Below, piece after piece: positions 1 to 39,977 of a stretch of DNA of 39,977 bases. The position numbers and the translations under genes were made by a program. Location: NCBI GenBank assembly GCA_044070495.1, contig JBIPSI010000041.1:1-39977 (forward strand), in the 5' to 3' direction. The notes below the pieces were generated by a model. The model searched no databases. It saw only the letters and a program-made list of their open reading frames with translations, and had not been told where the DNA came from. How positions within the stretch are numbered: the first letter of the stretch is position 1; each line of letters starts with the position of its first letter. The DNA comes from Spirulina sp. (lineage in GTDB: Bacteria; Cyanobacteriota; Cyanobacteriia; Phormidesmidales; Phormidesmidaceae).

Positions 1-127
1 TACCAATACCGCGCCCCTTTCTCTTCAGGGTCGATCTCAGGGAGGTTCAGGTCTGAGGGGGGCTTACTCGTCATGCCCCTTACTCTAACGATTTTTGTCC
101 CATTCGCAATAGCCCCATCTTGTTGCG

Positions 128-511
128 GTGACTAATTACCCAACCCATAGGCAAGCAGCACAGATTTTGACCGCAGCTTACCGAGATCAAAATACTGTTG
201 TTACAAGTAACTACGTCCTTGCAGAGCTGGTTTCCCTTTTGCACAGTCCTCTGCGAATTCCCCGTTCTAAAATCTTCGCTATCGTCGATACTATCAAAGC
301 AACCTCCTACATAGACATTGTGCATATCGACCTTGCTACAGATACCGATGCCTGGAATTTATGTAAATCTCGTCTTGATAAGGCCTGGTCGCTTGTTGAC
401 TGTAGTTCCTTTATCATCATGCAACAACATAACATCCAGAAAGCCCTCACCACTGATCACCATTTTGAACAAGCAGGTTTTGTCCGTTTACTCAATTCAT
501 CTAACCCCTGA
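128..511 (+). pseudogene. VapC/PIN-domain toxin, probably 5'-truncated
   Basis: Has PIN motifs TSNYVLAE, WSLVDCSSF and ALTTDHHFEQAGF. The N-terminal hhhDT motif is missing, and an in-frame TAG at 110-112 blocks upstream extension. Confidence 0.7.
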
Positions 512-518
512 GCTACCC

Positions 519-920
519 ATGACCGATCAACTCAAGGTTCAACAAATTTTCTACGCACCTGTAACTTACGTTATGGGCAACATCGAGGCATAGCATAACT
601 ACGCTACCGATCTATCGGTGCAAGCGGCCATCATGGATCTAAAAGCTCTGATTACTCATCTCCAAAGCCAGCACCCCACCGTCGCTAGCGAATCCGAAGC
701 CCTCGCAATTATTGATGCAGAATTTACCAAAATCCAGCACAGCAGTTCCTCCAAGTGGGCCAATCTTCGCCAACAAATTCTCAATCCCGAACGTCACCTC
801 CAAGCCACCAAAGCTACCCTCATCGAAATTGCCCAGCACTACCTAGAGGAAAGCATCTGGGGCAAAGCCACCATCACCTACCTTGACGCCCTCAGCCAAC
901 CCCCTGAAAAAGGAGCCTAA
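519..920 (+). pseudogene. Cyanobacterial hypothetical protein interrupted by an in-frame TAG at 591-593
   Basis: The frame from ATG 519 reads MTDQLKVQQIFYAPVTYVMGNIEA*HNYATDLSVQAAIMDLK... and continues directly into the 618..920 ORF. Confidence 0.6.
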
Positions 921-1016
921 ACCATGCAAATCACCATCGGCAGAACCTAACCCTTGGGCTGAGGGCGCTATGGCGTAGACTACAGGCAAGGGTTGCCGCG
1001 TATTGAGGCAGGAAAG

Positions 1017-1784
1017 ATGGAACAGGTGTGGCAGAAAATCTTGCGGTCGAAGCGGTTGCTGTGGTTTTGCTTGGGGATAGTGCTGGTGGGGATGGTGGTG
1101 CCGCTGCTGGCCTTGGTGCCCTGGCAGGGGCTATTTGGCATGGATGAACCGGCTCCCTCTGGCCCCAAGCAGGCGGTGGTAACGGAGGTGATTACCAGCT
1201 TGGATCGGGCGGAATTGCTGGCAACTTCAGCCACCCAGGGCAACCCCAATGCGGCCATTGTGCTGTTTAAGTTTTCCGATTTTCAGTGCCCCTACTGTGC
1301 GGTTTCGGCGGCCCAGTTGAAGGATTTTATTGGCCGCCATAACGAGGATATGCTGTTTGTCTACAAGCATTTTCCGTTGGATGCCATTCACCCGGAGGCG
1401 ACCCCAGCGGCCAAGGCGGCTTGGGCGGCGGGGCGGCAGGATCAATTTTGGCTGTACCACGATGGCCTGTTTGCCAATCAGGAGCGTCTAGGGGAAGACC
1501 TCTATGTTGAACTGGCGACCTCGATGGGGCTGGATGTGGCGCAATTTAACCGCGACCGCACCAGTCCCGAAGCCGCCGCCGCTGTAGCGCGGGATTTGGA
1601 ATTAGCCCAGCGCCTAGAGCTAGAAAGCACCCCCACCTTTTTGTTGAACGATTTGCTGATTCCGGGCGGCGTGACGCCAGAATTGATGGAAACGATTTTT
1701 CAGGACATTAAGGGCCGGATTAAGCTGAATTCCTCACAAATGAATTCCCAGCCCATGAATTCCCCACCCAATGCCGCGCCCTAA
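1017..1784 (+). CDS. Membrane-anchored DsbA-family thioredoxin-fold protein
   Basis: N-terminal TM helix, FSDFQCPYC active site, YKHFPL and STPTF cis-Pro motifs. ATG 1017 preferred over TTG 993. Confidence 0.9.
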   Translation: MEQVWQKILRSKRLLWFCLGIVLVGMVVPLLALVPWQGLFGMDEPAPSGPKQAVVTEVITSLDRAELLATSATQGNPNAAIVLFKFSDFQCPYCAVSAAQLKDFIGRHNEDMLFVYKHFPLDAIHPEATPAAKAAWAAGRQDQFWLYHDGLFANQERLGEDLYVELATSMGLDVAQFNRDRTSPEAAAAVARDLELAQRLELESTPTFLLNDLLIPGGVTPELMETIFQDIKGRIKLNSSQMNSQPMNSPPNAAP

Positions 1785-1975
1785 AGCTTGGTTGGCGCAA
1801 TCGGGTCAGGCAATAGATCTGGGTCATGGGACGGATCAAAGGCTTTGGACTTGGTTGAAGTCGGAATCGTTAACGTTGGGTGGGATGCTTGTCCATGCCG
1901 ACTCATACCAATCGTCTATGCCGCTGGCGCGACATCCCCAAGGGATAAACATCTATCAAGACCTTGGATGCTCCA

Positions 1976-2746
1976 TCAATGCTCCAAAACCAGGATTTCA
2001 GCGGCAATTTGCTGGAGAAAGGCGGCATCCTCCGCCGAAATGGCAGGATCGCGATAGACCAGGCCAACAGGGCTGAGGTGCATCAGAAATCCGTAGAGCA
2101 CGCAGGCGGCGAGGTAGGTGCCGTAGATCGTGGGGTGGGCATCATCGGCATCTAGGATGAGGTCGGGGCGGGTACGGTAAGCCTGTTCAAAGGCTAAGCC
2201 GACGGGAATGACAAGGGCGTTGATGGTCTCCCCTAGGGCATTGTAAGCATTGGCTAGGTTGCGGGTGTTCACGCCCTGGTCGAGGCTGTCGCGGCGTTCC
2301 CAGGTCATCATCAACATGGGTTCCGATCCACTGTCTCGAACCACCTGGGCTAGGGCCTTGGCGTAGTATTCCGAAAAGCTGGGGTTGATTACTGGGAGCT
2401 GGCTTTGGTCTTGCAGAATCACGTAGTTCCATGGCCCGTTGCGAATGGCCTGGAGAGTGTCCTCATCCTGCGAGTGGTCTTTAAAGGAATAGTTGGGCTG
2501 ACTGACGCTGCCCGCCTGGAGGGTGCGGGTAAAGCCACTGAGGTGATAGTTGATGCCATTGTTGTAGAAGGTGAGGCTGTTGCCCACAAACAATACTTGT
2601 ATGGGGCCTTGGGGCGGTGGTGGCAGGGTCACGGTGGGCTCTTTCTGGGTAAACGAAAACTGGCAGGCCACGGCAACCAGGGCCACCATAATCGCCAAAA
2701 TACAAAACTGGGCTACTGCCCTACCGTGGTGATGTCGGTTAGCCAT
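1976..2746 (-). CDS. SGNH/GDSL hydrolase-family lipoprotein (DUF4886-like)
   Basis: VLFVGNSLT block I, WNYVILQDQS, DDAHP block V and lipobox-like VAVAC. Start uncertain. Confidence 0.8.
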   Translation of the reverse strand: MANRHHHGRAVAQFCILAIMVALVAVACQFSFTQKEPTVTLPPPPQGPIQVLFVGNSLTFYNNGINYHLSGFTRTLQAGSVSQPNYSFKDHSQDEDTLQAIRNGPWNYVILQDQSQLPVINPSFSEYYAKALAQVVRDSGSEPMLMMTWERRDSLDQGVNTRNLANAYNALGETINALVIPVGLAFEQAYRTRPDLILDADDAHPTIYGTYLAACVLYGFLMHLSPVGLVYRDPAISAEDAAFLQQIAAEILVLEH

Positions 2747-2772
2747 AGCCCAGTCCTGATTTATAGAGAGCC

Positions 2773-2793
2773 GTAGGGTGGGCACTGCCCACC
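2773..2793 (+). repeat. GTAG-type REP-like palindrome
   Basis: GTAG-GGTGGGCA-C-TGCCCACC, just 3' of pnp. Confidence 0.7.
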
Positions 2794-2825
2794 GATTAAA
2801 CTCCTTGCCTGTCGCAATCGCTCGC

Positions 2826-4976
2826 CTAACGAGCCGCCGCCGCCGCCCGTGCCGCCGCCGCTTCGTCGGGATGGATGTTCAGACGAGTGAGGTTGACGCG
2901 GCCCCGACCGTCGATTTCGCGGACTTTGACGATCACCTCGTCGCCCACGTTCACCTCATCTTCCACCTTGGCGACACGATAGTCCGCCAGTTGGGAGATG
3001 TGGATCATGCCCTCTTGACCGGGCATAAATTCGACGAACGCGCCGATGGGGATCACCCGCATCACCGTGCCCACAAACACATCCCCAGCGGAGGGCTTGA
3101 AGACAATGGCTTCGATCATGGCCTTGGCCTGCTTGGCCTTTTCCCCTTCCAGGCAGGACACGGTGACGGTACCGTCGTCGTTGATGTCCACCTTGGCTCC
3201 GGTTTGCTCGGTGATGGCCTTGATCTTCTTGCCGCCGGGGCCGATCACCATCCCGATCATTTCGGGGTCGATCTTGAAGGTGATCAACTGCGGCGCATAC
3301 TTCGACATCTCCGTGCGGGGGGTGTCGATGGTGGCCAGCATTTTCTCCAGGATATGCAGACGGGCGGGCTTGGCCTGGTTGATGGCTTCGGCGATCACCT
3401 TAATGGGTAGTCCGGTAATTTTCATGTCCATTTGTAGGGCGGTGATGCCGCTGTCGGTGCCTGCCACCTTAAAGTCCATGTCGCCCAGGAAGTCTTCGAT
3501 GCCCTGGATGTCGGTGAGGATGCGGACTTCGTCGCCCTCCTTAATCAGGCCCATGGCCGCACCGCTGACGGGCTTGGTGATCGGTACCCCGGCATCCATC
3601 AGGGAGAGGGTAGACCCACAGACGGAACCCATGGAGGTGGAACCGTTGGAGGACAGCACCTCAGACACGACGCGAATCACGTAGGGGAACTCTTCCTGGG
3701 GCGGCAGCACGGGTACCAGGGCGCGTTCGGCCAGAGCACCGTGGCCAATTTCCCGCCGACCGGGGGAGCGCATGGGCCGAGTTTCGCCCACGGAGTAGGG
3801 GGGGAAGTTGTAGTGGTGCAGGTAGCGTTTTTCTTCGTCGGGGTGGAGGTCGTCCATCATCTGGGCATCACCGGGGGTGCCGAGGGTAACAACGGACATT
3901 ACCTGGGTCAGCCCCCGCTGGAACAGCCCCGTACCGTGGACGCGCTCCGGCAGCAGGCCCACCTGGCAGTAGATGGGGCGCACTTCGTCCAGCTTGCGGC
4001 CATCGACGCGAACTTTCTCGTCGATAATTTGCTGACGCATCAGCTTTTTGGTGACGGATTTGTAGGTGTTGCCCAGGGCTTTGCCGTTGGCCGCCACTGC
4101 GGCTTTTACGGGATGATCCTCTTCCAGCCCGTCGATGGTGGTGACGAGTTCGGCCTTGATGGCATCCAGCTTTTCATCCCGCTCTGGTTTGGTGAGGCTG
4201 AACTGTTTCAGCACTTCCTTGATGGCGGCGCTGGTCTTTTCTTCGATGAAGGTGGCCAGGGTGGGGTCGGTTTCCGGCGCGGGTTCTTTGACGATCTCGA
4301 TACCCAGTTCCTTAATCAGTTCAAGCTGGGCTTTGATTAGGTCTTGCACTACCTCATAGCCAAAGTCGATGGCTTCAATCATGTCAGCTTCGGGCAGTTG
4401 GTTGGCCCCGGCTTCCACCATGATCACGCCGTCGGGGGAACCCGCCACGACCAGATCCAGGTCGCCACTTTCCACTTCTTTGTAGGTGGGGTTAATGACA
4501 AAATCGTCGCCCACGAGGCCCACGCGCACCGCTGCCATCGGCCCATTGAAGGGAATTTTGGCCAGCAGCACCGCCACGGAAGCGCCCGTTGCCGCCAGCA
4601 CATCGGGGGGCACCTGCTCATCCATGGAGAGCGTGGTGGCCACAATTTGAATGTCGTCGCGCAGCCATTGGGGGAACAGGGGCCGCATGGGGCGGTCGAT
4701 CAAACGGCTAATCAGCGTGGCCCGTTCGGGGGGCCGACCCTCTCGGCGCAAAAAGCCACCGGGGATGCGTCCGGCGGCGTAGAGGCGTTCTTCGTAATCC
4801 ACCAACAGGGGCAAAAAGTCGATTCCTTCGCGGCCCGTGGAGCGGGTGGCCGTCACCAAAACGGCGGTTTCCCCCGACTGCACCAGCACCGCACCCCCCG
4901 CTTGGGGAGCCAGCAGACCTACCCGCAGCTTAATGTCCCGGCCATCAAAGGATATTGATTTTTCAATTTCTTGCAT
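2826..4976 (-). CDS. pnp: Polyribonucleotide nucleotidyltransferase (PNPase)
   Basis: 716 aa; two RNase PH domains ([29 protein letters not shown]), KH (IGPGGK) and S1 domains. Confidence 0.99.
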
Positions 4977-5240
4977 TGACTTTCTTCGTCCTTCTCGCTA
5001 CTTTTAGCGCCTTTGTACTCTCTTTTGCCTGATCCTAGCATCGATGGCCGTTTTGGCTTCTGACGTGGCCCCCCGGAAGCCCAATTAAGAGAAAGACTTA
5101 AGGTTTACTCAACAGATCGAGGGGGGATAGGCGGAGTTTCCCCGTTATTTAGTTCTCGAAATGGACTGTTCCTTGGCACGATCTATCCTGCTAAACAACT
5201 CCATTCACCGGTCACCCCGTTCCTTATATCTAGGACGCTT

Positions 5241-6260
5241 ATGAAAAAACGACTCTGGATCGTGGCCCTCGCTATGGGTGTTCCCCTCGTCATGTTAGCG
5301 ACCACGTTTTTCTACATCAGTGGCCCCCGCTGGGCCGAGGCCGACTACGACAACACCATCACCTACGACTATCCCCCTGGCCCGGAGAATCCAGGCACCC
5401 TCACCGTTGCAACCTACAATGTGGGCTACCTGTCGGGCCTCACCAATCAGCAGGCAGTGGTGCGGGATCGGGCCTTGCTGGAGGCGAACCAGGCGGCGGC
5501 GATCTCAGCCTTGCAACCTCTGAACCTGGATGTGCTGGCCCTGCAAGAGGTGGATTTTGATGCCCATCGATCCTTTAACCTAAACCAGCAGTACGCCCTG
5601 TCCGAGTCCCTGGCTCTGCCCTTTGCCGCCCTCGCCGTCAACTGGGATAAGCGCTATGTGCCCTTTCCCTACTGGCCGCCCCAGGTGCATTACAAAGCTG
5701 TTACCTCTGGGCAGGCGGTGCTAAGTCGTTACCCCATCCGCGAGAACCAGCGCCTAGTGCTGGAGCGAGTGCCCACCAATCCCTTCTACTACAACGCCCT
5801 TTACCTCGACCGGGTAGCCCAGGTGACGGAGATTGACCTATCGGGACAGCCGCTGATGGTGATGAACGTTCACCTCGAAGCCTTTGACGGCCCCACCCGC
5901 CGCCGCCAAACCACCTTCGTGCGGCAATTGGCCGAACAGTATGCCGAGACCATGCCCGTGCTGCTGCTGGGGGATTTTAACAGCGACCTTGATCGGGCGG
6001 AGGAGTCTGCCGATGGAGAAACGCCTTCAGTGCAAATTTTGCTAGATTCCCCGGTTTTGGCCAGTGCAGTGCCGATTCAGGCTCAATCAAGCACATTTCC
6101 TTCCGATCAGCCCCAGTACAGCCTAGACTACATCCTTTACACCCCCGCCACCCTGGCGGTGCGCGACTGGCAGGTGGTACAGTCCGCCGCCCAAGCCTCG
6201 GATCATTTGCCGGTGATGGCCATCCTAGAGCGGTTAGAGAACGCCACGCTTCCGGAATAG
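5241..6260 (+). CDS. Endonuclease/exonuclease/phosphatase family protein with N-terminal membrane anchor
   Basis: TYNV, LQEVD, NVHL, GDFN, LDYI and SDHLPV motifs. Confidence 0.92.
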   Translation: MKKRLWIVALAMGVPLVMLATTFFYISGPRWAEADYDNTITYDYPPGPENPGTLTVATYNVGYLSGLTNQQAVVRDRALLEANQAAAISALQPLNLDVLALQEVDFDAHRSFNLNQQYALSESLALPFAALAVNWDKRYVPFPYWPPQVHYKAVTSGQAVLSRYPIRENQRLVLERVPTNPFYYNALYLDRVAQVTEIDLSGQPLMVMNVHLEAFDGPTRRRQTTFVRQLAEQYAETMPVLLLGDFNSDLDRAEESADGETPSVQILLDSPVLASAVPIQAQSSTFPSDQPQYSLDYILYTPATLAVRDWQVVQSAAQASDHLPVMAILERLENATLPE

Positions 6261-6321
6261 CGGCCTAGGATCGTGAAGACTGCTCAAGTCCCCCTCTGAT
6301 CCCATCGGAGCGCCCTAGTCT

Positions 6322-7095
6322 ATGACCCATGCGTTTCTGCCCCGCATTCCCCTGCGACAGCCGTTTCGATGGGGGATTTGTTTCGGATTACTGGGGCTTG
6401 CTTTGGTCGGGTGTCGTGGCACGGTAGCACCCCAAAATCCTGACCCTACGCCCCAGCCCACCGAGACCCTAGAATCCTCTGCAACGGCGGAAGCCATTGC
6501 CACCATTCGCGACATCGTGGCCCAGCCCGTGTGGGTGCGACCTGCCCAGGGGGAAGAAATCGCTGCCCAGGTTGGTGCGCCCCTGCAATACGAAGACACC
6601 GTTCGCACGGAGGATCCGGCCCTAGTGGAGGTGGGCCTCGGTACCCTGGTGTTTCGTTTAGGGGGGAATGCCACCCTCACCCTGCGCCCCAATCAGCAGC
6701 TTCAGTTTGCGGCGGGCCGAATGCTGACCTGGGTGGAGGGACGCCCCCCAGGCTCGGTGACCATTCAAACCCCCGTCGGCGTGGCAGGTATTCGCGGCAC
6801 CACGGTGTTTGTCAACATTGAGGAGGATCCCCAGGCCCCCGTCGAATTTTTTGCCTGGGAGGGAGAGGTCACCTTTCAGCCCACCGGATCCGCTGATGTG
6901 GTGGTGATTCGCGATGGCGAACAGCTTTTGGTGCGTCCTGGGGAGGTGGATGTGGCCGATCTGCAACGACGGGTGAGACGCTTCGGGGCCGAGGAGTTTC
7001 GCCAGCGCCTAGAAAACAGCCCTCTGATGAACGACTTTAGCCAACCCCTGCCTACCTTGCCCCAAATTGAGGCTGTGGGGGAGGGGCTGGAGTGA
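6322..7095 (+). CDS. FecR-domain lipoprotein
   Basis: Lipobox LVGC; DTVRT, TPVGVAGIRGT and WEGEV motifs. Confidence 0.85.
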   Translation: MTHAFLPRIPLRQPFRWGICFGLLGLALVGCRGTVAPQNPDPTPQPTETLESSATAEAIATIRDIVAQPVWVRPAQGEEIAAQVGAPLQYEDTVRTEDPALVEVGLGTLVFRLGGNATLTLRPNQQLQFAAGRMLTWVEGRPPGSVTIQTPVGVAGIRGTTVFVNIEEDPQAPVEFFAWEGEVTFQPTGSADVVVIRDGEQLLVRPGEVDVADLQRRVRRFGAEEFRQRLENSPLMNDFSQPLPTLPQIEAVGEGLE

Positions 7096-7119
7096 AGGGT
7101 GAGGGGTGAAGGGTGAGGG
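7092..7119. repeat. Heptamer tandem repeat (GTGA(A/G)GG)x4, STRR-like
   Basis: gtgaagg gtgaggg gtgaagg gtgaggg read directly. Confidence 0.85.
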
Positions 7120-7191
7120 GGGCTTGGCCTTAGTCGCCTTTCTGGGGCAATCGCTATAGACTGCAAGGGTGCTTATTGCTGCGAGTGTGCC

Positions 7192-8025
7192 ATGGTGTCT
7201 TCCTTTGCAACGGAGGCGGGTCGTGCTGAGATTTTGTCGGCCCTAGAGCGGTTGGTGGCGGTGGTGGCCGATCTGCGCCATCCCGAAACGGGTTGCCCGT
7301 GGGATTTAGAGCAAACCGCCGAGAGCCTGATTCCCTACGTGATTGAAGAAGCCTACGAGGTGGTGGATGCTATCCACGGCGGCGAGTCTGCGGCGATTGC
7401 AGAGGAATTGGGAGACTTGCTGTTGCAGGTTGTCCTCCAGGCCCAGGTGGCCAGTGAAGCTGGGGATTTTGACCTCGCCACGGTGGCCAACGGCATTGCC
7501 GATAAGCTGATTCGCCGCCATCCCCATGTGTTTGGCGATGTGACGGTGGCCGATACCGATGAAGTGCATCGCAACTGGGATCGGATTAAATCTGAAGAAA
7601 AAGGCGTGCCCCACGAGCCGAATCGCCTCTCGCCCAAACTGGCCAAATATAACCGCACCCTGCCGCCGCTGATGGCCGCCAGCAAAATTTCCGCCAAGGC
7701 CGCCAAGGCCGGGTTTGAGTGGGACGATGTGGAGGGAGTCTGGGACAAGTTCCACGAAGAACTGGAGGAATTTCACCAGGCCGTAGCCCACGAACCCAAG
7801 GAAAATCAACAGGCGGAACTGGGCGATCTGTTGTTTACCCTGGTCAACATTGCCCGCTGGCATGGGCTGGATCCCTCTGAGGCCCTGCACGGCACGAATC
7901 AGCGCTTTATTCGCCGCTTTGAACAGGTGGAAGCCGCCGCCGATAAACCCCTCACCGACTGTAGCCCGCAGGAACTGGACGCCTTTTGGCAGCGGGCCAA
8001 GGCCAACCTGGCGCAGGGGGGTTAG
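7192..8025 (+). CDS. mazG: Nucleoside triphosphate pyrophosphohydrolase MazG
   Basis: GCPWD, EEAYE, EELGDLL, KLIRRHPHVF and a second ELGDLLF domain. Confidence 0.97.
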   Translation: MVSSFATEAGRAEILSALERLVAVVADLRHPETGCPWDLEQTAESLIPYVIEEAYEVVDAIHGGESAAIAEELGDLLLQVVLQAQVASEAGDFDLATVANGIADKLIRRHPHVFGDVTVADTDEVHRNWDRIKSEEKGVPHEPNRLSPKLAKYNRTLPPLMAASKISAKAAKAGFEWDDVEGVWDKFHEELEEFHQAVAHEPKENQQAELGDLLFTLVNIARWHGLDPSEALHGTNQRFIRRFEQVEAAADKPLTDCSPQELDAFWQRAKANLAQGG

Positions 8026-19413: not shown

Positions 19414-19416
19414 GTC

Positions 19417-28915: not shown

Positions 28916-28932
28916 TTGCCTGCCCCATCAAC

Positions 28933-31807: not shown

Positions 31808-31819
31808 CTAACGGGACGC

Positions 31820-32014: not shown

Positions 32015-32160
32015 GGATGGACTCCTGAGAGAGAACAACATGGGGCACACCAAAACGGAATTCCCCACGGAACATCGAATACCCACTAAGGCCCAGGGTG
32101 TGAGAGCAACCGCAGATAGCCTTAGGGAGGTCATCGTGGTCAAGGTAAATCCTCGAACAA

Positions 32161-32192
32161 TTGTTTTACAAATTATAACGATTGTTTGACAA
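32161..32192 (-). promoter_or_regulatory. Candidate nblA promoter (-10 TATAAT) with overlapping HLR1-like repeat
   Basis: TATAAT on the minus strand at 32172-32177 in an AT-rich patch; TTTACAAA-TT-ATAACGAT on the plus strand. Confidence 0.45.
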
Positions 32193-32320
32193 AGATCCAC
32201 TCTTGACAGGTTTGAGATATAGCTAGTAAGCCCTAAAAGGACAAACTCGGCCTCAAACTTCACAATTTTTATCAATATCCTTTGAGTAAAAATGCTCAGT
32301 GCGAACGGTTCGGGGAAGGG

Positions 32321-32362
32321 GGTTGTTGGTTGTTGGTTATTGGTTAATGGTTGTTGGTTGTT
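32321..32362. repeat. Heptamer tandem repeat (GGTTGTT-like) x6, STRR-like
   Basis: ggttgtt ggttgtt ggttatt ggttaat ggttgtt ggttgtt. Confidence 0.9.
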
Positions 32363-32427
32363 GGGGGCGTAGTCGTGGGACTGATGGCCTGACACATCGC
32401 CAAAGTAGTAGCGCGTCCAGTCCGATT

Positions 32428-32456
32428 TGTAGGGTGCAGCGAAGCGGAACCCTACA
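32428..32456. repeat. GTAG-type REP-like palindrome
   Basis: TGTAGGGT...ACCCTACA arms with an internal GCGAAGC mini-hairpin. Confidence 0.7.
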
Positions 32457-32544
32457 CTCACCGAGGATTACGGACTTGTTGGGTGCTGCTATCGCGCCCC
32501 TCAACCCGCGAAAAATCAGGGCTTTTGGAGGTTGTGCCAGCCAG

Positions 32545-33366
32545 CTAGGGATTAGGGGCACAGTGGGGGCAGGTTTGGCCCGGTTGATAGTGGGGAGAAG
32601 CCTGATCCTGGGGGCTGAGGGGATAGCCGCAACCGCCGCAGAGGACGTAATTTTGGGGCTGGAGGGCGTGATCCACCGCTACCCGTTCGTCAAACACAAA
32701 GCAATTTCCTCGCCACAGGCTTTCGTTGGGGGGAACCTGTTTGAGATAGTTCAAAATGCCGCCCTTGAGGTGGTAGACCTGGTCAAATCCCTGTTCTCGG
32801 AGGTAGGCGGTGGCCTTTTCGCAGCGGATGCCCCCGGTGCAGAACATGGCAACCTTGCGGTGTTGGGCGGGGTCGAGGTGCTGCTCGATGTAATTGGGCA
32901 GTTCACGGAAGGCGTGGGTGTGGGGGTTGATCGCGCCTTGGAACGTGCCCAGGTCTACCTCAAAGTCGTTACGGGCGTCGATTAGCACCACCTCAGGATC
33001 TTGGATCAGCGGGTTCCAGTCCTGGGGGTCTACATAGGTGCCCACCTGCTGGTTGGGATTAAGGTCGGGGCGACCTAGGGTGACGATTTCCGGCTTGATC
33101 TTCACCTTCATGCGTCCAAAGGGAGCCGCTTCCGTGGTCGATTCCTGCACCGTCAGCGGGCCGATGGCGGGATGGGCTTGCAGCCAAGCCAACAGGTGAT
33201 CCACGCCTTCCCGAAAGCCCGCAAGGGTGGCATTCAGCCCTTCCTCAGCCAGCAAAATCGTGCCGCACAACCCCCAGCGCTGGCTTTCGGCCAAGAGATC
33301 CTCCCGCAGTTGGGACAGATCATGAAGGTCAACGAATTTGTAAAAGGTGGCAACAATCCAGGTCAT
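32545..33366 (-). CDS. trhO: Rhodanese-related tRNA uridine(34) hydroxylase TrhO (YceA/UPF0176)
   Basis: FYKF, EEGLNAT, EIVTLG, CTGGIRCEKA and CFVFDERV motifs. Confidence 0.92.
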   Translation of the reverse strand: MTWIVATFYKFVDLHDLSQLREDLLAESQRWGLCGTILLAEEGLNATLAGFREGVDHLLAWLQAHPAIGPLTVQESTTEAAPFGRMKVKIKPEIVTLGRPDLNPNQQVGTYVDPQDWNPLIQDPEVVLIDARNDFEVDLGTFQGAINPHTHAFRELPNYIEQHLDPAQHRKVAMFCTGGIRCEKATAYLREQGFDQVYHLKGGILNYLKQVPPNESLWRGNCFVFDERVAVDHALQPQNYVLCGGCGYPLSPQDQASPHYQPGQTCPHCAPNP

Positions 33367-33408
33367 GGGGACGGGACGGTGTGAGAGGAACTTTGAAGGC
33401 CGCTTCCG

Positions 33409-33449
33409 GCCCCCCTCTCCTTCCTGGGAGAGGGGCTGGGGGTGAGGGC
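33409..33449 (+). repeat. CCCCTCTCC..GGGAGAGGGG..GGGG.GAGGG dispersed hairpin repeat, copy 2
   Basis: Similar to 24194-24234. Confidence 0.8.
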
Positions 33450-33500
33450 AAACTCCCCAACCGACAAGAATTTCTATTTTAGGATTGAGAACGCCCTAGT

Positions 33501-33938
33501 TTACTGAGGATTCGGGGCTCCTGGTGAATTTCCCTCAGGGGGTGGCTGGGTGGCAATGGCGAGCTGCACGCCCTCCAGGGTTCTGAGTTGATCCATCACC
33601 GCCACCACCCGCCCGTGGGGCACGGCTTGATCGGCTTGGATAATCACCACGTTGCCCACGGTCATGGGCAGTTGATCCTGCACGACCCCAAGCAGTTGGT
33701 CATCGCTGACGGCTTGGCCCCCCACTGCCAAGGCTCCGCTGGCCTCCACCGTTACCACAATGGAAAGCTGGGGTTGAACGATGCCCGTTTGTGCCTCCGG
33801 CAGCGCCACCGTTAGCCCCTCGTTGCGGCTGAGGTAGAGGCTGGAAATTAGGAAAAACACCAGCACCGCAAACACCATATCAATCATGGGCACGATGTTG
33901 ATCTGGGGGGAAGACTCTGGTTCGTCGGGCAGGCGCAT
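33501..33938 (-). CDS. exbD: Biopolymer transporter ExbD/TolR
   Basis: INIVPMIDMVFAVLVFF TM with conserved Asp; ADQAVPHGRVVAVMD. ATG 33938. Confidence 0.92.
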   Translation of the reverse strand: MRLPDEPESSPQINIVPMIDMVFAVLVFFLISSLYLSRNEGLTVALPEAQTGIVQPQLSIVVTVEASGALAVGGQAVSDDQLLGVVQDQLPMTVGNVVIIQADQAVPHGRVVAVMDQLRTLEGVQLAIATQPPPEGNSPGAPNPQ

Positions 33939-34080
33939 GGTAAGGGACACGGAAAAGCTTGGCGCGCCCCAGCCTTGACCCCTCAACGACCAAGCTGGGC
34001 AGCACACCCTAGCTTATCCCAACCCTTGGGGCCGATGAGCCTGGACGCTGAATTCGCTGCTCACGGCTGAATGGAGATTC

Positions 34081-34365
34081 CTAGGTGCTGTGGCCGGGAT
34101 GAACGGTTTGGGTTGGGGGGGCGCATTTAAGGGCCGGTTCCCCAGCAGGATCGGGGGCTGATGCGGGCAAAATCTCTTCTTGGCTGATGGCGTCGTTAAG
34201 GATGTTGAGGAGGCGCTGCTCGTCGGCGGAAAGATCGGATCGCTGGCTGAGGGCATAAATAGCGTCGGCCACCTCCGCCAACAATGCCTTGGACTGAAGC
34301 GCTTGGCGCACGATGGCTTCTAAATAGGTAACGCGATCTGCCTGGGATAAATTAGCCCACATCAT
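34081..34365 (-). CDS. Small hypothetical protein
   Basis: 94-aa helical ORF (LEAIVRQALQ...LSADEQRLLNILNDAI) with a GAGG upstream. Confidence 0.7.
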   Translation of the reverse strand: MMWANLSQADRVTYLEAIVRQALQSKALLAEVADAIYALSQRSDLSADEQRLLNILNDAISQEEILPASAPDPAGEPALKCAPPTQTVHPGHST

Positions 34366-34428
34366 GCTGGGAGCCTCGATATAGCCCTAGATCTAACGCC
34401 GTTGTGTGAGGGCGCTGTCCGTGGATGA

Positions 34429-34444
34429 TGTGATCAATATCACA
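34429..34444. promoter_or_regulatory. CRP (SyCrp1-type) binding site
   Basis: Perfect TGTGA-TCAATA-TCACA, intergenic, 64 nt upstream of the 94-aa ORF. Confidence 0.75.
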
Positions 34445-34684
34445 CAAACTGCCTTTTAAAACAATTCTAGCTAGAGACTTTGCTTGAGGTTAGAAAGGTT
34501 AGACCTGAGAGCCAAGAAACAAGCTAAATGCCTTATCTTATGGGGCCGAACAAGACAGGCTAGCCATCCCACAGAGGGGGAAGGCCACGGAAGTCCTTAG
34601 CATGCTTTAACGATTGATTCTGTCCATGTCCACCATAGAGTAGGCAAAGGCGCGACTGGAGAGTCTGTTGGTGAACGATTGAGG

Positions 34685-35143
34685 CTAGGCAGATCGCGCC
34701 ATGGCGAGAATCCGCTCCGCCACCGCATCGGCCACGGGCATCACCGACAGCCGATTGCCCCGCCGTACCACCCACAGGTCTTCGGGGGTAAAGGTGTCTT
34801 TTAGTTGGTCAAGGGTGATCCCAGTCGAAAAGGTCTCCACGTACCCCACGACCACCGTGTGCCAGCGGGGCTTGTCGGGCGAAGATTTGGGGTCATAGTA
34901 CTTGTGGGCCGGGTCGAACTGGGTGGGATCGACCACGTTGGCCTCGACAATTTTGGCCAGCCCCACAATGCCCGGTGGCTTGGTGTTGGAGTGGTAGAAA
35001 AAGGCCAGATCCCCCACCGCCATGCTGGTCAGGAAATTGCGGGCCTGGTAGTTGCGTACGCCATCCCACAGTTCCGTCTGGTCGCGGGCCAGATCGTGGA
35101 TGCCGTAGACATCGGGTTCAGACTTCATCAACCAGTAGGCCAT
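34685..35143 (-). CDS. EVE domain protein
   Basis: YWLMKSEP, WDGVRNYQARN, FFYHS and RGNRLSVMPV motifs. Confidence 0.96.
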   Translation of the reverse strand: MAYWLMKSEPDVYGIHDLARDQTELWDGVRNYQARNFLTSMAVGDLAFFYHSNTKPPGIVGLAKIVEANVVDPTQFDPAHKYYDPKSSPDKPRWHTVVVGYVETFSTGITLDQLKDTFTPEDLWVVRRGNRLSVMPVADAVAERILAMARSA

Positions 35144-35603
35144 GGCTTAGCAGCTTCTCCAACAGATCACGATGGGCAGAATTTTGGGTCGATAGGGTGA
35201 CTTTACGGCCACTGTTGTCGGCATAGGCAAGGGCAAGCCGAATCGCCTGGTCGGGAACCTTGGCCAGACGCTCGGCCCATTCAATCGCCACGATGCCGGG
35301 GGCGGTTTCCTGCTCGTCCCAATAGGCCTCTAGGTAAAGATCCATCACCTCTTCACCATCGAGCCGATATAGGTCAATATGGTACAAGGGTACTCTACCC
35401 TCCAGGTACTCATTCACCAGGGTAAAGGTCGGGCTGCTGATTGGATCAACGATCCCCAAGCCCAGCCCCAATCCCTGAATCAGCGTCGTTTTGCCACTGC
35501 CCAAATCCCCCGACAGCAGCAGAATCGTCCCCGCCGGAAGCACCCGCCCCAGCCCTTCCCCCAGCCGTTGGGTCGCCGCCGCATCGGGCAACTCAAGTTC
35601 CAT
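35118..35603 (-). CDS. tsaE: tRNA t6A biosynthesis ATPase TsaE
   Basis: GDLGSGKTT, SSPTFTLVNEY, YHIDLYRL and IEWAE. Start 35603-35627 uncertain. Confidence 0.96.
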   Translation of the reverse strand: MELELPDAAATQRLGEGLGRVLPAGTILLLSGDLGSGKTTLIQGLGLGLGIVDPISSPTFTLVNEYLEGRVPLYHIDLYRLDGEEVMDLYLEAYWDEQETAPGIVAIEWAERLAKVPDQAIRLALAYADNSGRKVTLSTQNSAHRDLLEKLLSHGLLVDEV

Positions 35604-35787
35604 CACCGCATCATCCATCCCGTTCAACCATCCATCCCCTAGGACTTTATCAGCGATACCAATAGCGATCTCGATTTATATTCTCGATTCATATCCAGAA
35701 CGCTCCAAATCCACAACCACGATCTACAACAGACAGAATAATCCCCACCGTCCCCTGATCACTGCCTGCCAACCCCCACTCCCGACG

Positions 35788-35836
35788 AATAACCAATAAC
35801 GAATAGCCAACAACTAATAACCAGTAACCAACAACC
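35788..35836. repeat. Heptamer tandem repeat (AATAACC-like) x7, STRR-like
   Basis: aataacc aataacg aatagcc aacaact aataacc agtaacc aacaacc; same family as 32321-32362 in the opposite orientation. Confidence 0.88.
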
Positions 35837-35851
35837 CCAATCCCCTTCCCC

Positions 35852-36454
35852 ATGATCATCACCGTAGCCAGCTTCAAAGGCGGTGTCGGCAAAACCACCA
35901 CAGCCATTCACCTCGCGGCCTTTTTGCAAAATCATGCCGAAACCCTGCTGATCGATGCCGACCCCAACCGTTCGGCCCTGGCCTGGGCCAATCGGGGAGT
36001 GCTACCCTTTGCGGTAACGGACGAGTGGCAGGCGGGGGGCTATCTACCCGATGAGGGCCATGTGGTGATTGACACCCCAGCCCGACCCGACCCGGAGGAC
36101 TTGGCCATGCTGGCGGAGGCGTGTGATTTGCTGGTGCTGCCCACTACGCCGGACGTGCTGTCGTTGGATGTGCTGGCCCTGATGGTGGCCTACCTGGAGC
36201 CGTTGGCGATCCAAAACTATCGCGTACTGCTGACTATGATGCCCCCCAGCCGTCGCATTGCCGCCGCCCTACAGCCCCTGCTAGAGTCGATTCAGCCCCG
36301 CATGTTTGACCACAGCATTCGACGCTATGCGGCCTACCAAAAGGCGGCGCAACAGGGGCAGGTGGTCTCTGTGGTGAAGGCGGCCAAGGCGGCGGACGCT
36401 TGGCAAGATTACGCCACCATCGGCCAGGAATTGCTGCTGAAGGTTGGGGTTTAA
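35852..36454 (+). CDS. parA: Short ParA-family ATPase (no N-terminal HTH)
   Basis: Deviant Walker A KGGVGKTT, IDADPN and VIDTP. Confidence 0.92.
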   Translation: MIITVASFKGGVGKTTTAIHLAAFLQNHAETLLIDADPNRSALAWANRGVLPFAVTDEWQAGGYLPDEGHVVIDTPARPDPEDLAMLAEACDLLVLPTTPDVLSLDVLALMVAYLEPLAIQNYRVLLTMMPPSRRIAAALQPLLESIQPRMFDHSIRRYAAYQKAAQQGQVVSVVKAAKAADAWQDYATIGQELLLKVGV

Positions 36455-36537
36455 CCTCAGTTCGGGGTAGCCCCAGTGACCAGATCCCCGGTTAGCCCTC
36501 CCTTACCGGAAGCAAGAAGACCTGTACCCTGCTACCT

Positions 36538-36653
36538 AATCCCCTTTAGAGGATTTCTGCTTTGAGCCTTGGACATTGAGTCCTTGGCTTCCTATCCACA
36601 ACCACCAGGGAGTGAACTCCCTGGCTCATCGCGAAAGTCTGCTGAAGCAGCCT
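36538..36653. repeat. Inverted pair of double-hairpin units (REPIN/BIME-like)
   Basis: 36538-36588 and the reverse complement of 36605-36653 share the layout hairpin(TTYA loop)-linker ending TGAGCC-hairpin. Confidence 0.7.
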
Positions 36654-36831
36654 CAAGATCGTTGCTGCTGAGGGTGGCCGGGGATCCGGTGCTGCCCGGT
36701 TTTGTGTTGAATCTGGCTTGGCTATGGAAGTCATCGGCCCCTGACAACCGCTAAGATTGATCCTCGGTTCGTTGTGATCCTGGGTTTTTGCTGAATCAGG
36801 ATTGAATTCGGTGTAAGGAGTCGGGTAAGCC

Positions 36832-37473
36832 ATGAAACTGAAACGCGGGACGGTGGTGTTGGTAGGGGTGGCCCTGTTGTTGGGGGCCGGAGTGTTGATG
36901 GGCGAATTGCGCCAGAGCCGTGCCCCAGAAAGCGCCACGGTGAGCGATGGGGTGGGGCCAGTGTTTACCTTTGCCGAAACCGATGTAGCCACGGTGACGG
37001 TAGAACGCGATGACGAAACGCTAACTTTTGAGGGCGATGGCGAGGGCAATTGGCAAATGACGGCCCCAGAAAATCTGGTGGCGGAACCGGGGGCGGTGGC
37101 CTTTTTGCTGAGCCGATTGAATACCGATTCCCCGCAGCAACGGGTGACCATGGCGGCGGATCAAATTCAGGACTTTGGCCTAGACCAGCCCCAGGGGAAA
37201 GTGACCGTGACCTTGCAGGACGGCACCGAGCACGTTCTGATTCTGGGTGGGCCAGACTTTAGCGGCAACGCCAACTACGCCATTGTCGATCCCGATGGCG
37301 CTTGGCCCCCAGAAAACCCCGCCGACGAATACGAGGTGCTGGTGGTAACCCGCGATGTGGCTAACGGCATCAATCGGCCCCTAGAGGAATGGAAAATGCC
37401 CGTGGACGCAGGTGAAGCCGAAGGGGAGGCTTCAGAGGCGGAGTCCCCAGAGGCGGAGTCCCCAGAACAGTAG
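36832..37473 (+). CDS. DUF4340-like membrane-anchored protein
   Basis: N-terminal TM, WQMTAPE, FGLDQPQ..VTVTL and LILGGPDF; SD AAGGAG; 15-bp EAESP repeats at the C-terminus. Confidence 0.8.
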   Translation: MKLKRGTVVLVGVALLLGAGVLMGELRQSRAPESATVSDGVGPVFTFAETDVATVTVERDDETLTFEGDGEGNWQMTAPENLVAEPGAVAFLLSRLNTDSPQQRVTMAADQIQDFGLDQPQGKVTVTLQDGTEHVLILGGPDFSGNANYAIVDPDGAWPPENPADEYEVLVVTRDVANGINRPLEEWKMPVDAGEAEGEASEAESPEAESPEQ

Positions 37474-37530
37474 CCCCGTAGGACACAGCCCACCATCCCG
37501 GCATTTCGCAGCACAGATAGCCGTCTCGAC

Positions 37531-38058
37531 CTATAGCTTTGTGGGACGGACAAAGCAGCGATCTCCCAAATCGTAGGACTGAAGTTCTGGACACTGGCTC
37601 GCCTTCACTTCCCGATATCCAAGGCGTTTCAAGAGACGAAGGCTCCGCTGATTCCTAGGATGCACAGTGGCCCACCAGTCGGTTCCCGGTGCGACGGTTG
37701 CTAGGTAATCGTGCCGCCAGAGCATCGCCTCGAAGGCTAACCCCTTTCCCCACCAAGCCTCGCCCAATAAATACGCTACTTCGCCCCAATCTCCGTATCC
37801 TGTCGCCTCAAGCCGACCAATCACTGGGGCAGGAGGGCTTTTTAGCCGTATGGCCATGTTGAACCATTGCTCGGTGGCGGCAACTAACCCTACAGGCCCT
37901 TGGGAGCGAGCGGCGTACTCTGCCCTCAATTCCTCGATAGTCGGTGGCCTGCCATCGGGGTCGATAAAGGCAATGACAGAGGGTGTAGTCAGAATAGTAA
38001 AGAGATCGTTGGCATGGGTGTCCGTGAGTGGTTCAAAATATAGGTTCTCACTCTGCAT
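37531..38058 (-). CDS. GNAT family N-acetyltransferase (RimJ/RimL-like)
   Basis: EVAYLLGEAWWGKGLAFEA (motif A) and VHPRNQRSLRLLKRLGY (motif B). Confidence 0.92.
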   Translation of the reverse strand: MQSENLYFEPLTDTHANDLFTILTTPSVIAFIDPDGRPPTIEELRAEYAARSQGPVGLVAATEQWFNMAIRLKSPPAPVIGRLEATGYGDWGEVAYLLGEAWWGKGLAFEAMLWRHDYLATVAPGTDWWATVHPRNQRSLRLLKRLGYREVKASQCPELQSYDLGDRCFVRPTKL

Positions 38059-38120
38059 AGGCTATTCTTTAGGCTATGGTGGCTGGCGCTTCTCGCCCCA
38101 TTGCACATAAGGATAGCCCC

Positions 38121-39293
38121 GTGGAGCCTCCCCGCTCGGCCAGATCACTCCCCCAGTTCAGCGCCCCCCCCGGCTATCGACCCCAAGCCGACGACACCAG
38201 CCTGGAAACGGATTTGCTGTGTTTTTATCTACTACGGCAAAAAACGGTAGCGGAACGGCTGGCTATGGGGGCACAGCTAATGCGTAGTGCTCGACAATTC
38301 TCACTCAACTGTTTTCATCAGCGCTTTGCCCATTTAAGCCCCCCCCAGTTTGCCCGTAAGATGGCCGAGGTTTGGCTGCAAGAGCATTGTCCAAAGCACT
38401 ATGTGCCTCAGGGTTCAGAAATGACGTGGATTCAAGACTCTATTCAATTAGCCGTAGACCTCCATAACATTCTTGAACAAGAGGGGATTCCTTACTATGT
38501 GACGGGTGGCGTCGCGGCCATTGCCTATGGCGAGACCCGCACCACGCAAGACTTAGACATTGTGCTGTCCATTCCTAGGGAGACTATACCAGCACTGGCT
38601 GAGGCTCTAGAACAGGCTGGTTTCTATGTGCCTGGGGTGGAGGATGTCGTCTCAAATCGTATGCGGACGCTACAAATTACCCAAGTGGCCACCATTTCAC
38701 GGGCTGATTTGGTGATTGCTGAGATGACCCCCTACGAAGCCCTCAAGTTTGAACGCCGTCAGGCCTACCAACTCATCCAGGGCCAATTCATTTACCTCGC
38801 CTCGCCTGAAGATGTGGTGGTCAATAAATTGCGCTGGGGCCAGCAAAGTCAATCCGAAAAACAGTGGCGTGATGTGTTGGGTGTGTTGAAAGCCCAGCAG
38901 GATGGATTGGACTACAACTACATGCACCAATGGGCAGCGGCGTTTGATTTATCGGAACAATTAGACCAGGTAACGCGGGAAGCCGGAGTAAGAACCATTG
39001 CCGACCACCAATGGGCCACGGCCCTCTACCCCACCATGCAACGAGCCTTTGAAATCGCCCAAAGCCGCCGCCGCACCCACCAACCCAACCCTGATACAGA
39101 AGTTGCGGAGGGCAGGCAATACACCCTAGTTCACCATCGTCGCGATCAGACCCTAACGGTCATCGGAAACATCGATGATCGCACCGTCTCCCAATTTGAT
39201 TCCCAAGGCCAAGTTATCCACGCCAGCCCCTCCCGCTATGACCGCCAACAATGGGCCATCATTGCCGGAAGGATTTTGCCTAAAACAGGCTAA
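38121..39293 (+). CDS. Nucleotidyltransferase (AbiEii/MenT-like Pol-beta fold) with fused N-terminal helical module and C-terminal extension
   Basis: YYVTGGVAAIAYGETRTTQDLDIV, ASPEDVVVNKLRW and SEKQWRDV. GTG 38121 has AAGGA upstream; ATG 38076 also possible. Confidence 0.85.
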   Translation: MEPPRSARSLPQFSAPPGYRPQADDTSLETDLLCFYLLRQKTVAERLAMGAQLMRSARQFSLNCFHQRFAHLSPPQFARKMAEVWLQEHCPKHYVPQGSEMTWIQDSIQLAVDLHNILEQEGIPYYVTGGVAAIAYGETRTTQDLDIVLSIPRETIPALAEALEQAGFYVPGVEDVVSNRMRTLQITQVATISRADLVIAEMTPYEALKFERRQAYQLIQGQFIYLASPEDVVVNKLRWGQQSQSEKQWRDVLGVLKAQQDGLDYNYMHQWAAAFDLSEQLDQVTREAGVRTIADHQWATALYPTMQRAFEIAQSRRRTHQPNPDTEVAEGRQYTLVHHRRDQTLTVIGNIDDRTVSQFDSQGQVIHASPSRYDRQQWAIIAGRILPKTG

Positions 39294-39394
39294 GTAGAAA
39301 AACGAACAAAATCCGTATAAGTTCTGTATAGCAAAAGCTCGTAGTGTACTAATTTCATAGCAGTCTCCCAAAATCATGCTTACCCAAACAATCC

Positions 39395-39835
39395 ATGAGT
39401 GAAGATAATCAGAGTAGCCAGGAAAATATTAGTGCTGAGAAAATATTGCTGATAGATCTAGAAAACTGCCCCGATCAGATTCATCAACTACAAAAAAGTT
39501 TGGAAGAGTTCTCCCAAGTCATCATTTGCTATGCCAGAACTGGGGCCAAAATACCCCTTGACTGGCTAGTTCCCCTTAGCGGAACCGTTAGCGCCAACAA
39601 ATTAAAAATATTCAAAATGGCCAATGGGGGCAAGAATGCGGCTGACTTTGGCCTTTGCTTTTTTGCAGGGGCTTTAATGCAGCAATTGTCTCCTGAAACC
39701 CATTTCGTCATCATCTCAAATGACACTGACCTCGACCACGTTGTTAGCTTGCTCCAAAGTCAGGGCCGCACAGCAGAGCGCGTAGGTAGTCAAAAAACTC
39801 AAACTCAGACAGTAATTAGTCACAGCGATAAGTGA
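39395..39835 (+). CDS. PIN/NYN (LabA-like, PIN7-type) domain protein, possibly C-terminally truncated
   Basis: LLIDLEN, GKNAADFGL and ISNDTDL acidic motifs. Confidence 0.85.
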   Translation: MSEDNQSSQENISAEKILLIDLENCPDQIHQLQKSLEEFSQVIICYARTGAKIPLDWLVPLSGTVSANKLKIFKMANGGKNAADFGLCFFAGALMQQLSPETHFVIISNDTDLDHVVSLLQSQGRTAERVGSQKTQTQTVISHSDK

Positions 39836-39906
39836 GGCTTAATGAGAAAGCCTCCAGAGCCGTAGGATTATCTAGGCAGAAGGGGAGGGGGCGAGCACCC
39901 TGAAGA

Positions 39907-39942
39907 GTCGATGAGCCCAAAGAGCTCATCGACGGCATTTTT
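39907..39942 (+). terminator. Strong hairpin: terminator or mobile-element subterminal palindrome
   Basis: GTCGATGAGC-N7-GCTCATCGAC perfect 10-bp stem, then GGCATTTTT. Confidence 0.5.
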
Positions 39943-39977
39943 ACCCTGACGGCGCATCGATTCGAGAAAACTGAACA

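Follow-up and report, generated by a model that had tools for sequence, protein, structure and literature searches.

Loss of the HIP1 core CGATCG in a Nodosilinea-group subclade, probably as part of a broad avoidance of type II restriction targets

That prokaryotic genomes avoid the sites of type II restriction enzymes was reportedly described by Gelfand and Koonin in 1997 and by Rocha et al. in 2001. According to the available part of Rusinov et al. 2015 (PMC4687349), short palindromes recognized by orthodox type II systems are under-represented, and this avoidance can outlast the system; avoidance without a resident system, read as the trace of lost systems, is documented there in general terms. 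For cyanobacteria, the accessible text of PMC4390886 ascribes the loss of the highly iterated palindrome HIP1 (GCGATCGC) in Calothrix PCC 7103 to infection by a CGATCG-specific restriction system, while the accessible text of Rodriguez-Cruz et al. 2026 (PMC13756078) counts Leptolyngbya sp. BL0902 (Nodosilineales) among seven independent losses of HIP1 enrichment. AvaI and AvaII restriction has been described in Anabaena PCC 7120 (Elhai et al. 1997, as cited in the part of PMC3265524 available). Here, we describe a 39,977-bp stretch of DNA (the window) without CGATCG, the core of HIP1. The window is the entire contig C41 of the 5,313,730-bp genome G000 (74 contigs, 56.7% G+C, 97% complete) of a filamentous cyanobacterium of the Nodosilinea group. 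The CGATCG depletion is real, clade-wide, and selected, and it is part of a restriction-avoidance profile.

CGATCG is absent from both strands of the window, compared with 7.9 ± 2.7 copies in 100 dinucleotide shuffles and 13.0 copies expected under a maximal-order Markov model (Poisson P(0) = 2.3e-6), while the half-word CGATC is plentiful with 112 copies on both strands versus 71 ± 9.5 in the shuffles (shuffle maximum, 95). The initial annotation had noted the missing CGATCG and roughly 60 plus-strand copies of CGATC that were never followed by G. Both observations hold, the exact number of plus-strand copies being 62, with T, A, C, and G as the next base 22, 21, 19, and 0 times, respectively. 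Genome-wide, 208 copies of CGATCG were found where 1,785.6 are expected under the same model (observed/expected ratio [O/E], 0.116), and a count near expectation was thus seen neither in the window nor in the genome. The 208 sites are unevenly distributed: 126 of them lie in 15 clusters that together span 82 kb, or 1.5% of the genome, and in the remaining 98.5%, we calculate an O/E of ~0.05 for the other 82 sites. A normal HIP1 density elsewhere in the genome, which would have spoken against depletion, is therefore found locally in these clusters and not in the rest of the genome. HIP1 itself is present in 104 copies per 5.31 Mb versus 129.5 expected from base composition, and G000 lacks the hyper-abundance typical of HIP1 (approximately one copy per 1 to 2 kb, far above expectation); in a same-genus comparison, 17 of 18 genomes contained 1,704 to 8,331 copies. 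Because no 8-mer palindrome in G000 is over-represented, the commonest ones occurring at Markov expectation, we rejected the idea that an alternate highly iterated palindrome has replaced HIP1.

The initial annotation considered CGATCG alone, but G000 avoids about 20 words in all, and CGATCG ranks no higher than 13th among its depleted palindromic hexamers. The most avoided hexamers are GGCGCC (8 copies versus 2,002 expected) and CGGCCG (8 versus 1,858), with CCGCGG (7 versus 998) in third place; GTCGAC is present 11 times versus 850 expected. Beyond these 4 words, 16 more palindromic hexamers, including CGATCG, have an O/E of <0.26, which brings the total to 20, and 16 avoided hexamers summed by us amount to 1,173 copies versus 20,219 expected. 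Besides CGATCG, the window also lacks GGCGCC, CGGCCG, CCGCGG, GTCGAC, GGGCCC, GCCGGC, CTGCAG, TTCGAA, CAGCTG, and CCCGGG. Among all 2,080 strand-collapsed 6-mers of G000, palindromes account for 27 of the 30 with the strongest depletion. The three nonpalindromes, i.e., CCCGAG/CTCGGG (O/E 0.14), GAGCCC/GGGCTC (0.27), and ACCGGC/GCCGGT (0.43), complete the degenerate sets CYCGRG, GRGCYC, and RCCGGY, of which the palindromic members are likewise depleted, and the pentamer GGWCC is present 526 times versus 7,210 expected (O/E 0.073). AvaI recognizes CYCGRG, and AvaII recognizes GGWCC; together with GRGCYC and RCCGGY, which we take to be BanII-like and Cfr10I-like sites, these presumably represent classical cyanobacterial type II specificities. 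We know of no other process that would single out exactly these degenerate sets. Because palindromes and complete degenerate sets are depleted, the profile has the signature of restriction avoidance. Words related to CGATCG are spared in G000, with an O/E of 0.88 for GATC and of 0.98 for CGRYCG minus its two palindromes, and neither the RGATCY members GGATCC and AGATCT nor TGATCA are avoided; therefore, the target is the PvuI-type hexamer CGATCG itself.

To delimit the depletion, we compared 53 genomes of the genus. Seven are CGATCG-poor, i.e., G000 (208 copies) and six others (67 to 868 copies each), while the other 46 contain 2,767 to 14,912 copies, which supports the suggestion in the initial annotation that the lineage went from over-representation to depletion. 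With the polynucleotide phosphorylase (PNPase) gene in the window as the marker of relatedness, the six CGATCG-poor relatives are exactly those genomes with a PNPase 97 to 98% identical to that of G000, all others being at ≤92%. Because the CGATCG-poor genomes coincide with this ≥97% group, the ancestor was HIP1-rich, and the loss of HIP1 with depletion of its core took place in a single subclade, which comprises seven species. One clade member, G052 (89% complete, 3% contaminated), has 868 copies in 3.7 Mb, severalfold more than its sisters, and this excess may reflect more imported islands or contamination. Among named records, Phormidium sp. FACHB-1136 and two Nodosilinea metagenome-assembled genomes have a PNPase 97 to 98% identical to that of the window, and the syntenic loci of 6 to 22 kb in these three closest records each have 0 copies of CGATCG. 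Other Nodosilinea, Leptolyngbya, and Phormidium records are 89 to 93% identical in PNPase, and these next relatives have 9 to 49 copies of CGATCG and 6 to 26 copies of HIP1 per locus of 8 to 22 kb. The same avoidance profile as in G000 is observed in 280 kb of G047 and 214 kb of G005, two other clade members. A 100-kb portion of the BL0902 plasmid NZ_CP046156 has no HIP1, 4 copies of CGATCG versus 16.5 expected, and 29 copies of the avoided set versus 360 expected, and the avoided words are the same as those in G000. Pooled HIP1-rich congeners already avoid some words, such as GGCGCC (O/E 0.05) and GGGCCC (0.12). CGATCG (1.30) and CAGCTG (0.82) are not among these, and the avoidance of GTCGAC (0.46) is much weaker in the congeners than in the clade.

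A comparison of clade members supports that the avoidance is actively maintained. In a 155.7-kb alignment of G000 and G047 (85.4% identity), 360 of the 978 nonavoided palindromic hexamers of G000 are common to both genomes, i.e., 63% are unshared. The 16 avoided words occur 28 times in G000 and 23 times in G047, with 3 copies in common, versus ~590 expected when genome-wide counts are scaled to the alignment; in the comparison of G000 and G005, the corresponding numbers are 7, 5, and 0. Thus, avoided words stay ~20-fold rare and unshared while ordinary palindromes turn over heavily. Because the avoided sites are few and unshared, they are young and lineage-specific, and such words are being selected against in each lineage. 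In a small conservation test, CGATCG was kept at 0 of 22 and CAGCTG at 0 of 8 positions, and the nonavoided words ATCGAT (0 of 7) and GCTAGC (0 of 5) were also at zero.

We also aligned 22-kb loci of 26 HIP1-rich relatives to G000, with the caveat that at a DNA identity of ~78%, multiple hits blur the substitution spectrum. G000 faces CGATCG in at least one relative at 154 positions, in at least two at 38, and in at least three at 25, and keeps none of these sites. The PNPase gene has 13 positions with CGATCG in at least one HIP1-rich relative, all without the word in G000 (examples in Table 1). The 60 single-change replacements in the core include C1>G (13), G2>C (16), and A3>G (17) and 8 deamination-type changes (C1>T, 6; G2>A, 2), and none of the latter is among the 14 replacements for which at least two relatives agree. 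The predominance of C-to-T changes that methylation-driven decay would leave is therefore not seen. Because the changes affect all three half-site positions and are mostly to G or C, the purge proceeded via ordinary G/C-preferring substitutions. Ordinary substitutions at all positions are what selection against the word predicts.

Based on these observations, we favor the explanation that the missing CGATCG reflects restriction-site avoidance in a seven-species subclade of HIP1-rich descent, and we consider this explanation probable. In this subclade, CGATCG as the core of HIP1 and a PvuI-type target would have been purged along with some 20 other type II target words, and selection would still be removing new copies as mutation makes them. 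The agent for CGATCG would be a CGATCG-cutting enzyme, either a past resident or one circulating in the gene pool of the clade, that may have overridden whatever process keeps HIP1 abundant in the relatives.

Two assignable restriction-modification (RM) systems of the clade match top-ranked avoided words, i.e., CCGCGG and GTCGAC. Using phmmer with 15 C5-methylase loci against all 37,505 stop-to-stop open reading frames (ORFs) of G000, we identified a single C5 methylase. The remaining methylases of G000 are a DPPY beta-class enzyme that is encoded in a conserved nadD-nudix context and is common to HIP1-rich congeners, a Dam-family enzyme (PF02086 match; TIGR00571, 1.2e-85) for which GATC specificity, as in the DmtA type expected of HIP1-rich cyanobacteria, is suggested by family only, and two large type IIG-like enzymes. 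The C5 methylase is encoded on C51 in a low-GC island next to an Eco29kI-family endonuclease (PF09517, 5.6e-70; PADLOC REase_II, 2.5e-91), and we take the Eco29kI prototype to cut CCGCGG. This pair is also present at the same hox locus in G005 (92 to 95% identical), as a pseudogene in G031, and in two HIP1-rich genomes. The C51 island (35 to 47% G+C) is located between an insertion sequence (IS) transposase gene and the hox hydrogenase genes and also encodes a PIN toxin and a separate 292-amino acid (aa) GIY-YIG protein. G005 additionally encodes, on C251, a C5 methylase with a BbrUII/HgiDII-family enzyme (NCBIfam; 220 bits, below the curated 550), and the HgiDII prototype presumably cuts GTCGAC. 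G047 encodes three methylase-containing pairs on C1 (near 2.372, 3.702, and 4.022 Mb), in two of which the methylase is accompanied by an endonuclease and in the other by an ORF; one of the three is 96% identical in G049. Of the many N6 methylases of G005, those examined are of type I, ISP, or type IIG, and these classes do not cause avoidance according to the available part of PMC4687349. At least one G005 system is inserted where the G000 sequence is contiguous; therefore, its absence from G000 is real rather than an assembly gap. Because a single genome has one to three orthodox type II systems, in combinations that vary between species (Eco29kI in G000; Eco29kI and HgiDII in G005; three others in G047), the agents probably take turns within the clade instead of all being resident at once. 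Most economically, orthodox systems would come and go within the clade. More tentatively, about 20 words may be held at mutation-selection balance across the clade by selection that is exerted by a rotating pool of RM systems, or that acts on DNA in transit between cells, rather than by resident enzymes, with HIP1, a proposed transformation-enhancing tag, having been sacrificed once a CGATCG cutter joined the pool.

Several observations weigh against restriction-site avoidance as the explanation. The RM inventory of G000 falls far short of the number of avoided specificities, which is at least 14 (8 of them made up of G and C alone), and cognate systems were found only for CCGCGG (G000 and G005) and GTCGAC (G005), with none for CGATCG or the other avoided words. 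The selection by a PvuI-like enzyme that the initial annotation had proposed fits the wider, restriction-like signature and is plausible but unproven, since no CGATCG-specific endonuclease or methylase was identified in G000 or its sisters. Family searches for C5, N4/N6, and Dam methylases in these genomes gave none tied to CGATCG, and no model bearing the name of a CGATCG enzyme was among the matches of the family searches. Of the 349 ORFs with a GC content of <50%, the 134 scanned with PADLOC (those of <45.5% and 150 to 1,300 aa, C51 excluded) included no further clear type II enzyme, and four candidate endonucleases compared by sequence with solved structures had no match below an E value of 0.5. 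The endonuclease common to G047 and G049 has 6,466 homologues with only generic names, and NCBIfam names the G005 enzyme alone. Homologues of the G047/G049 endonuclease are present in 80 metagenome loci, and in the 48 of these that are at least 5 kb long, CTCGAG is the most avoided word (0.44), while CGATCG is at 0.61 overall and at 29 copies versus 35.7 expected beside close homologues; this endonuclease is thus probably not the CGATCG agent, the flanks pointing to CTCGAG. Similarly, there is no support for the G047 pair with an SPPY methylase, a motif that we assume to be of the m4C type, because a 91%-identical copy is present in G025, which has 1,367 copies of HIP1. In BL0902, REBASE type II endonuclease homologues are lacking according to the available part of PMC11298460, and conjugation is efficient, with protective methylases having only a 2-fold effect (PMC3265524, in the part available). 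Finally, islands with 20 to 30 CGATCG sites are tolerated in G000; therefore, a CGATCG cutter without a matching methylase cannot be active now.

These islands account for most of the residual sites. Full HIP1 is present at 90 of 146 clustered but only 14 of 62 isolated sites, and the islands, which carry accessory genes (Table 1), reach donor-like CGATCG densities. They have no GGCGCC, CGGCCG, or CCGCGG, a single GTCGAC, and few other avoided words. For the 16-kb core of the C16 island, homologues are present in seven HIP1-rich congeners (78 to 96% identity), and the only match in the six sister genomes is a clade-specific 130-bp repeat that is inserted in the island. Because of these HIP1-rich homologues and this repeat, we conclude that a HIP1-rich relative was the source of the island and that the island, located within a contig of 138 kb, is truly resident in G000. 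The ~130-bp repeat is present in all six sister genomes (84 to 93% identity), is unmatched in HIP1-rich congeners, and looks like a clade-specific miniature mobile element.

The islands bear on a variant of the restriction explanation in which the filter acts in recipient cells: chromosomal DNA would move often, strains would each carry few of many circulating systems, and site-free alleles would spread better. The small and differing sets of orthodox systems, an avoidance of ~20 words that is identical across the clade and actively maintained, and the lack of the most avoided words in the islands all fit such a filter, as does the presence of competence and pilus genes (ComEC, ComFB, and PilM). 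Against it, the islands are rich in CGATCG, and CGATCG was hence not filtered on entry. To our knowledge, such a mechanism has not been demonstrated for chromosomes, and we regard it as unlikely, if less so than the explanations below. ComEC, ComFB, PilM, and RadC are retained in three clade genomes, and the last three were proposed in 2026 as HIP1-correlated genes (PMC13756078, in the text accessible). Their retention implies that their presence is insufficient to keep HIP1, and loss of competence or RadC genes was rejected as a correlate of HIP1 loss.

Mutational decay, the other cause put forward in the initial annotation, is improbable. Here, methylated CGATCG would deaminate to TGATCG/CGATCA or CGATTG/CAATCG in the absence of the T:G-to-C:G repair that is supposed to regenerate HIP1 in other cyanobacteria. 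The C16 island offers some support. Among its 16 positions with CGATCG in at least two agreeing relatives, G000 keeps 6, and 9 of the 10 losses are C/T differences (3 at C1 and 6 at C5), which is more than expected from the island's own spectrum (binomial P = 0.004) and from the C/T rate at other CpG sites (9 of 64 versus 67 of 1,040; Fisher P = 0.036). However, this comparison is unrooted and the numbers are small, and the C/T differences could be gains in lineages that are actively building HIP1. CGATCG retention in the island (6 of 16) is not significantly different from that of other words (56%; P = 0.21), and the island's divergence of 8.6% does not date the import since the donor is unsampled. 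Vsr was unmatched in a profile search of G000, as decay without repair would have it, but it was equally unmatched in G005 and in the HIP1-rich congeners G016, G018, and G036. The few deamination-type changes among the core replacements also speak against deamination as the main route, and TGATCG/CGATCA show no excess over other one-off words in G000, while CAATCG/CGATTG are below expectation. None of the methylases in the assembly could be assigned to CGATCG, and the only C5 methylase is the partner of the Eco29kI-family (CCGCGG) endonuclease. The premise that links HIP1 to a CGATCG 5-methylcytosine methylase is not strict in this genus either: 15 of 26 genomes have no PF00145 match, including the HIP1-rich and 100% complete G036 (7 contigs) and G016 (20 contigs), and therefore, HIP1 abundance here needs no DmtC-type enzyme. 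Moreover, decay alone can neither drive a word 10- to 20-fold below Markov expectation nor explain 20 other words.

Even less probable is neutral loss, in which the process that raises HIP1 was lost and the sites drifted away. The HIP1 count, which is close to that expected from base composition, and the ordinary appearance of the core replacements agree with drift. However, CGATCG is 8.6-fold below Markov expectation genome-wide and ~20-fold below outside the islands, and with 63% of ordinary G000 palindromes unshared with G047, a neutral word would have largely returned to expectation. An assembly or binning artefact can be dismissed for the depletion and is relevant to the gene inventory only (no contig is <3.1 kb, and small mobile contigs may be missing), because the same depletion is present in six other genomes, one of them in six contigs, and in the named, complete BL0902 plasmid, and because the C16 island with its clade-specific repeat is embedded in a long contig.

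Other features of G000 are included in Table 1. A possible modification-dependent nuclease is encoded on C19, namely, a 323-aa HNH protein with a subthreshold match (7.1e-24) to the NCBIfam model for phosphorothioated-DNA-binding restriction endonucleases. Two variable defense hot spots on C4 and C12 have the same flanking genes but different cargo in G005 (C209 and C183, respectively), with PADLOC candidate systems in G000 and, in G005, either a type IIG enzyme or the combination of a MutH/Sau3AI-like nuclease and a CcrM-like methylase. Unlike in many bacteria, CTAG is undepleted genome-wide (O/E 0.97) and TTAA is over-represented (1.26); GGCC is very frequent, with 49,801 copies. Four ordinary core genes in the window show nothing unusual apart from word avoidance.

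Table 1. Locations of features in the window (contig C41) and elsewhere in G000
Feature	Contig	Position	Strand	Remarks
Whole window	C41	1..39977	.	Core chromosome; CGATCG 0, GCGATCGC 0, CGATC half-words 112
Polynucleotide phosphorylase gene	C41	2826..4976	-	Relatedness marker
Former CGATCG site	C41	3149..3154	.	CGATCG in 10/26 relatives; G000 CCAGGC
Former HIP1 site	C41	3765..3770	.	GCGATCGC in 18/26 relatives; G000 GGAGCG, two changes
Former CGATCG site	C41	4367..4372	.	CGATCG in 6/26 relatives; G000 CGATGG, single C-to-G
Former CGATCG site	C41	4574..4579	.	CGATCG in 13/26 relatives; G000 CCACGG
Former CGATCG site	C41	4693..4698	.	CGATCG in 6/26 relatives; G000 CGGTCG, central A-to-G, no deamination product
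MscS-like channel	C41	9259..11037		Ordinary core gene
Beta-carotene hydroxylase CrtR	C41	12500..13387		Ordinary core gene
Pyruvate kinase	C41	13648..15540		Ordinary core gene
RNase R	C41	17020..19413		Ordinary core gene
Accessory islands	C16, C35, C74			TPR-CHAT, CHASE2, DUF1822, two-partner-secretion genes
Accessory island	C40			Phage-tail-like injection system
Accessory island	C12			PatG cyanobactin cluster
Accessory island	C5			Helicase/DUF499/DUF1156 defense cluster
~130-bp repeat	C16	99147..99281
~130-bp repeat	C16	52977..53108
~130-bp repeat	C40	497..629
~130-bp repeat	C14	119739..119873
~130-bp repeat	C11	104613..104742
Low-GC island with Eco29kI-family pair	C51	2157..6841
C5 methylase and Eco29kI-family endonuclease pair	C51	4060..5851
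Dam-family methylase	C13	150838..151569
HNH protein	C19	101345..102316
Defense hot spot	C4	179828..191972
Defense hot spot	C12	109820..112806

What HIP1 does has been debated for three decades, and 46 HIP1-rich and 7 HIP1-purged species of one genus provide a close comparison that bears on the purpose of HIP1, on how strongly restriction shapes chromosomes, and on whether avoidance can be upheld without resident enzymes. The same avoidance profile is found in BL0902, which is genetically tractable and already in laboratory use, and the list of avoided words predicts which sites to remove from vectors for the clade. HIP1 density marks recently imported islands. If selection does act through a rotating pool of RM systems or on DNA in transit, HIP1 density would be a watermark for dating and sourcing islands, and the clade and its relatives would be a natural pair of HIP1-free and HIP1-rich congeners for testing HIP1 function.

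Among the described systems, Calothrix PCC 7103 resembles G000 in its HIP1-rich ancestry, its loss of HIP1, and a CGATCG count well below expectation, but the accessible text of PMC4390886 also reports for Calothrix strong depletion of GATC, GGCGCC as the alternate highly iterated palindrome, and remnants of a CGATCG endonuclease with an m4C methylase. In G000, by contrast, GATC is spared, GGCGCC is the most avoided word, no alternate palindrome has arisen, and no CGATCG system or remnant was found. As for the AvaI and AvaII targets of Anabaena PCC 7120, all members of CYCGRG and GGWCC are depleted in G000, but no AvaI- or AvaII-type gene pair was identified; the protective methylases behind the 2-fold gain in conjugation in BL0902 were of these types (PMC3265524, available part). 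Relative to type II site avoidance in general, G000 is unusual in the breadth and depth of its avoidance given one clear type II system in the assembly, and the repeat that was once the signature of the lineage has one of the avoided words as its core. BL0902 belongs to the same order as G000, has no HIP1 enrichment, and avoids the same words in the plasmid sampled, the genes common to both being 69 to 88% identical at the DNA level. The available text of PMC13756078 describes BL0902 only as unenriched for the octamer; the words "restriction" and "CGATCG" are absent from that text, as are clade limits, hexamer depletion, a 20-word profile, and HIP1-bearing islands. Thus, that BL0902 is not HIP1-enriched was already known, and what is added here is a loss of HIP1 that is a bounded clade character and that goes along with an extreme and actively maintained avoidance of restriction sites.

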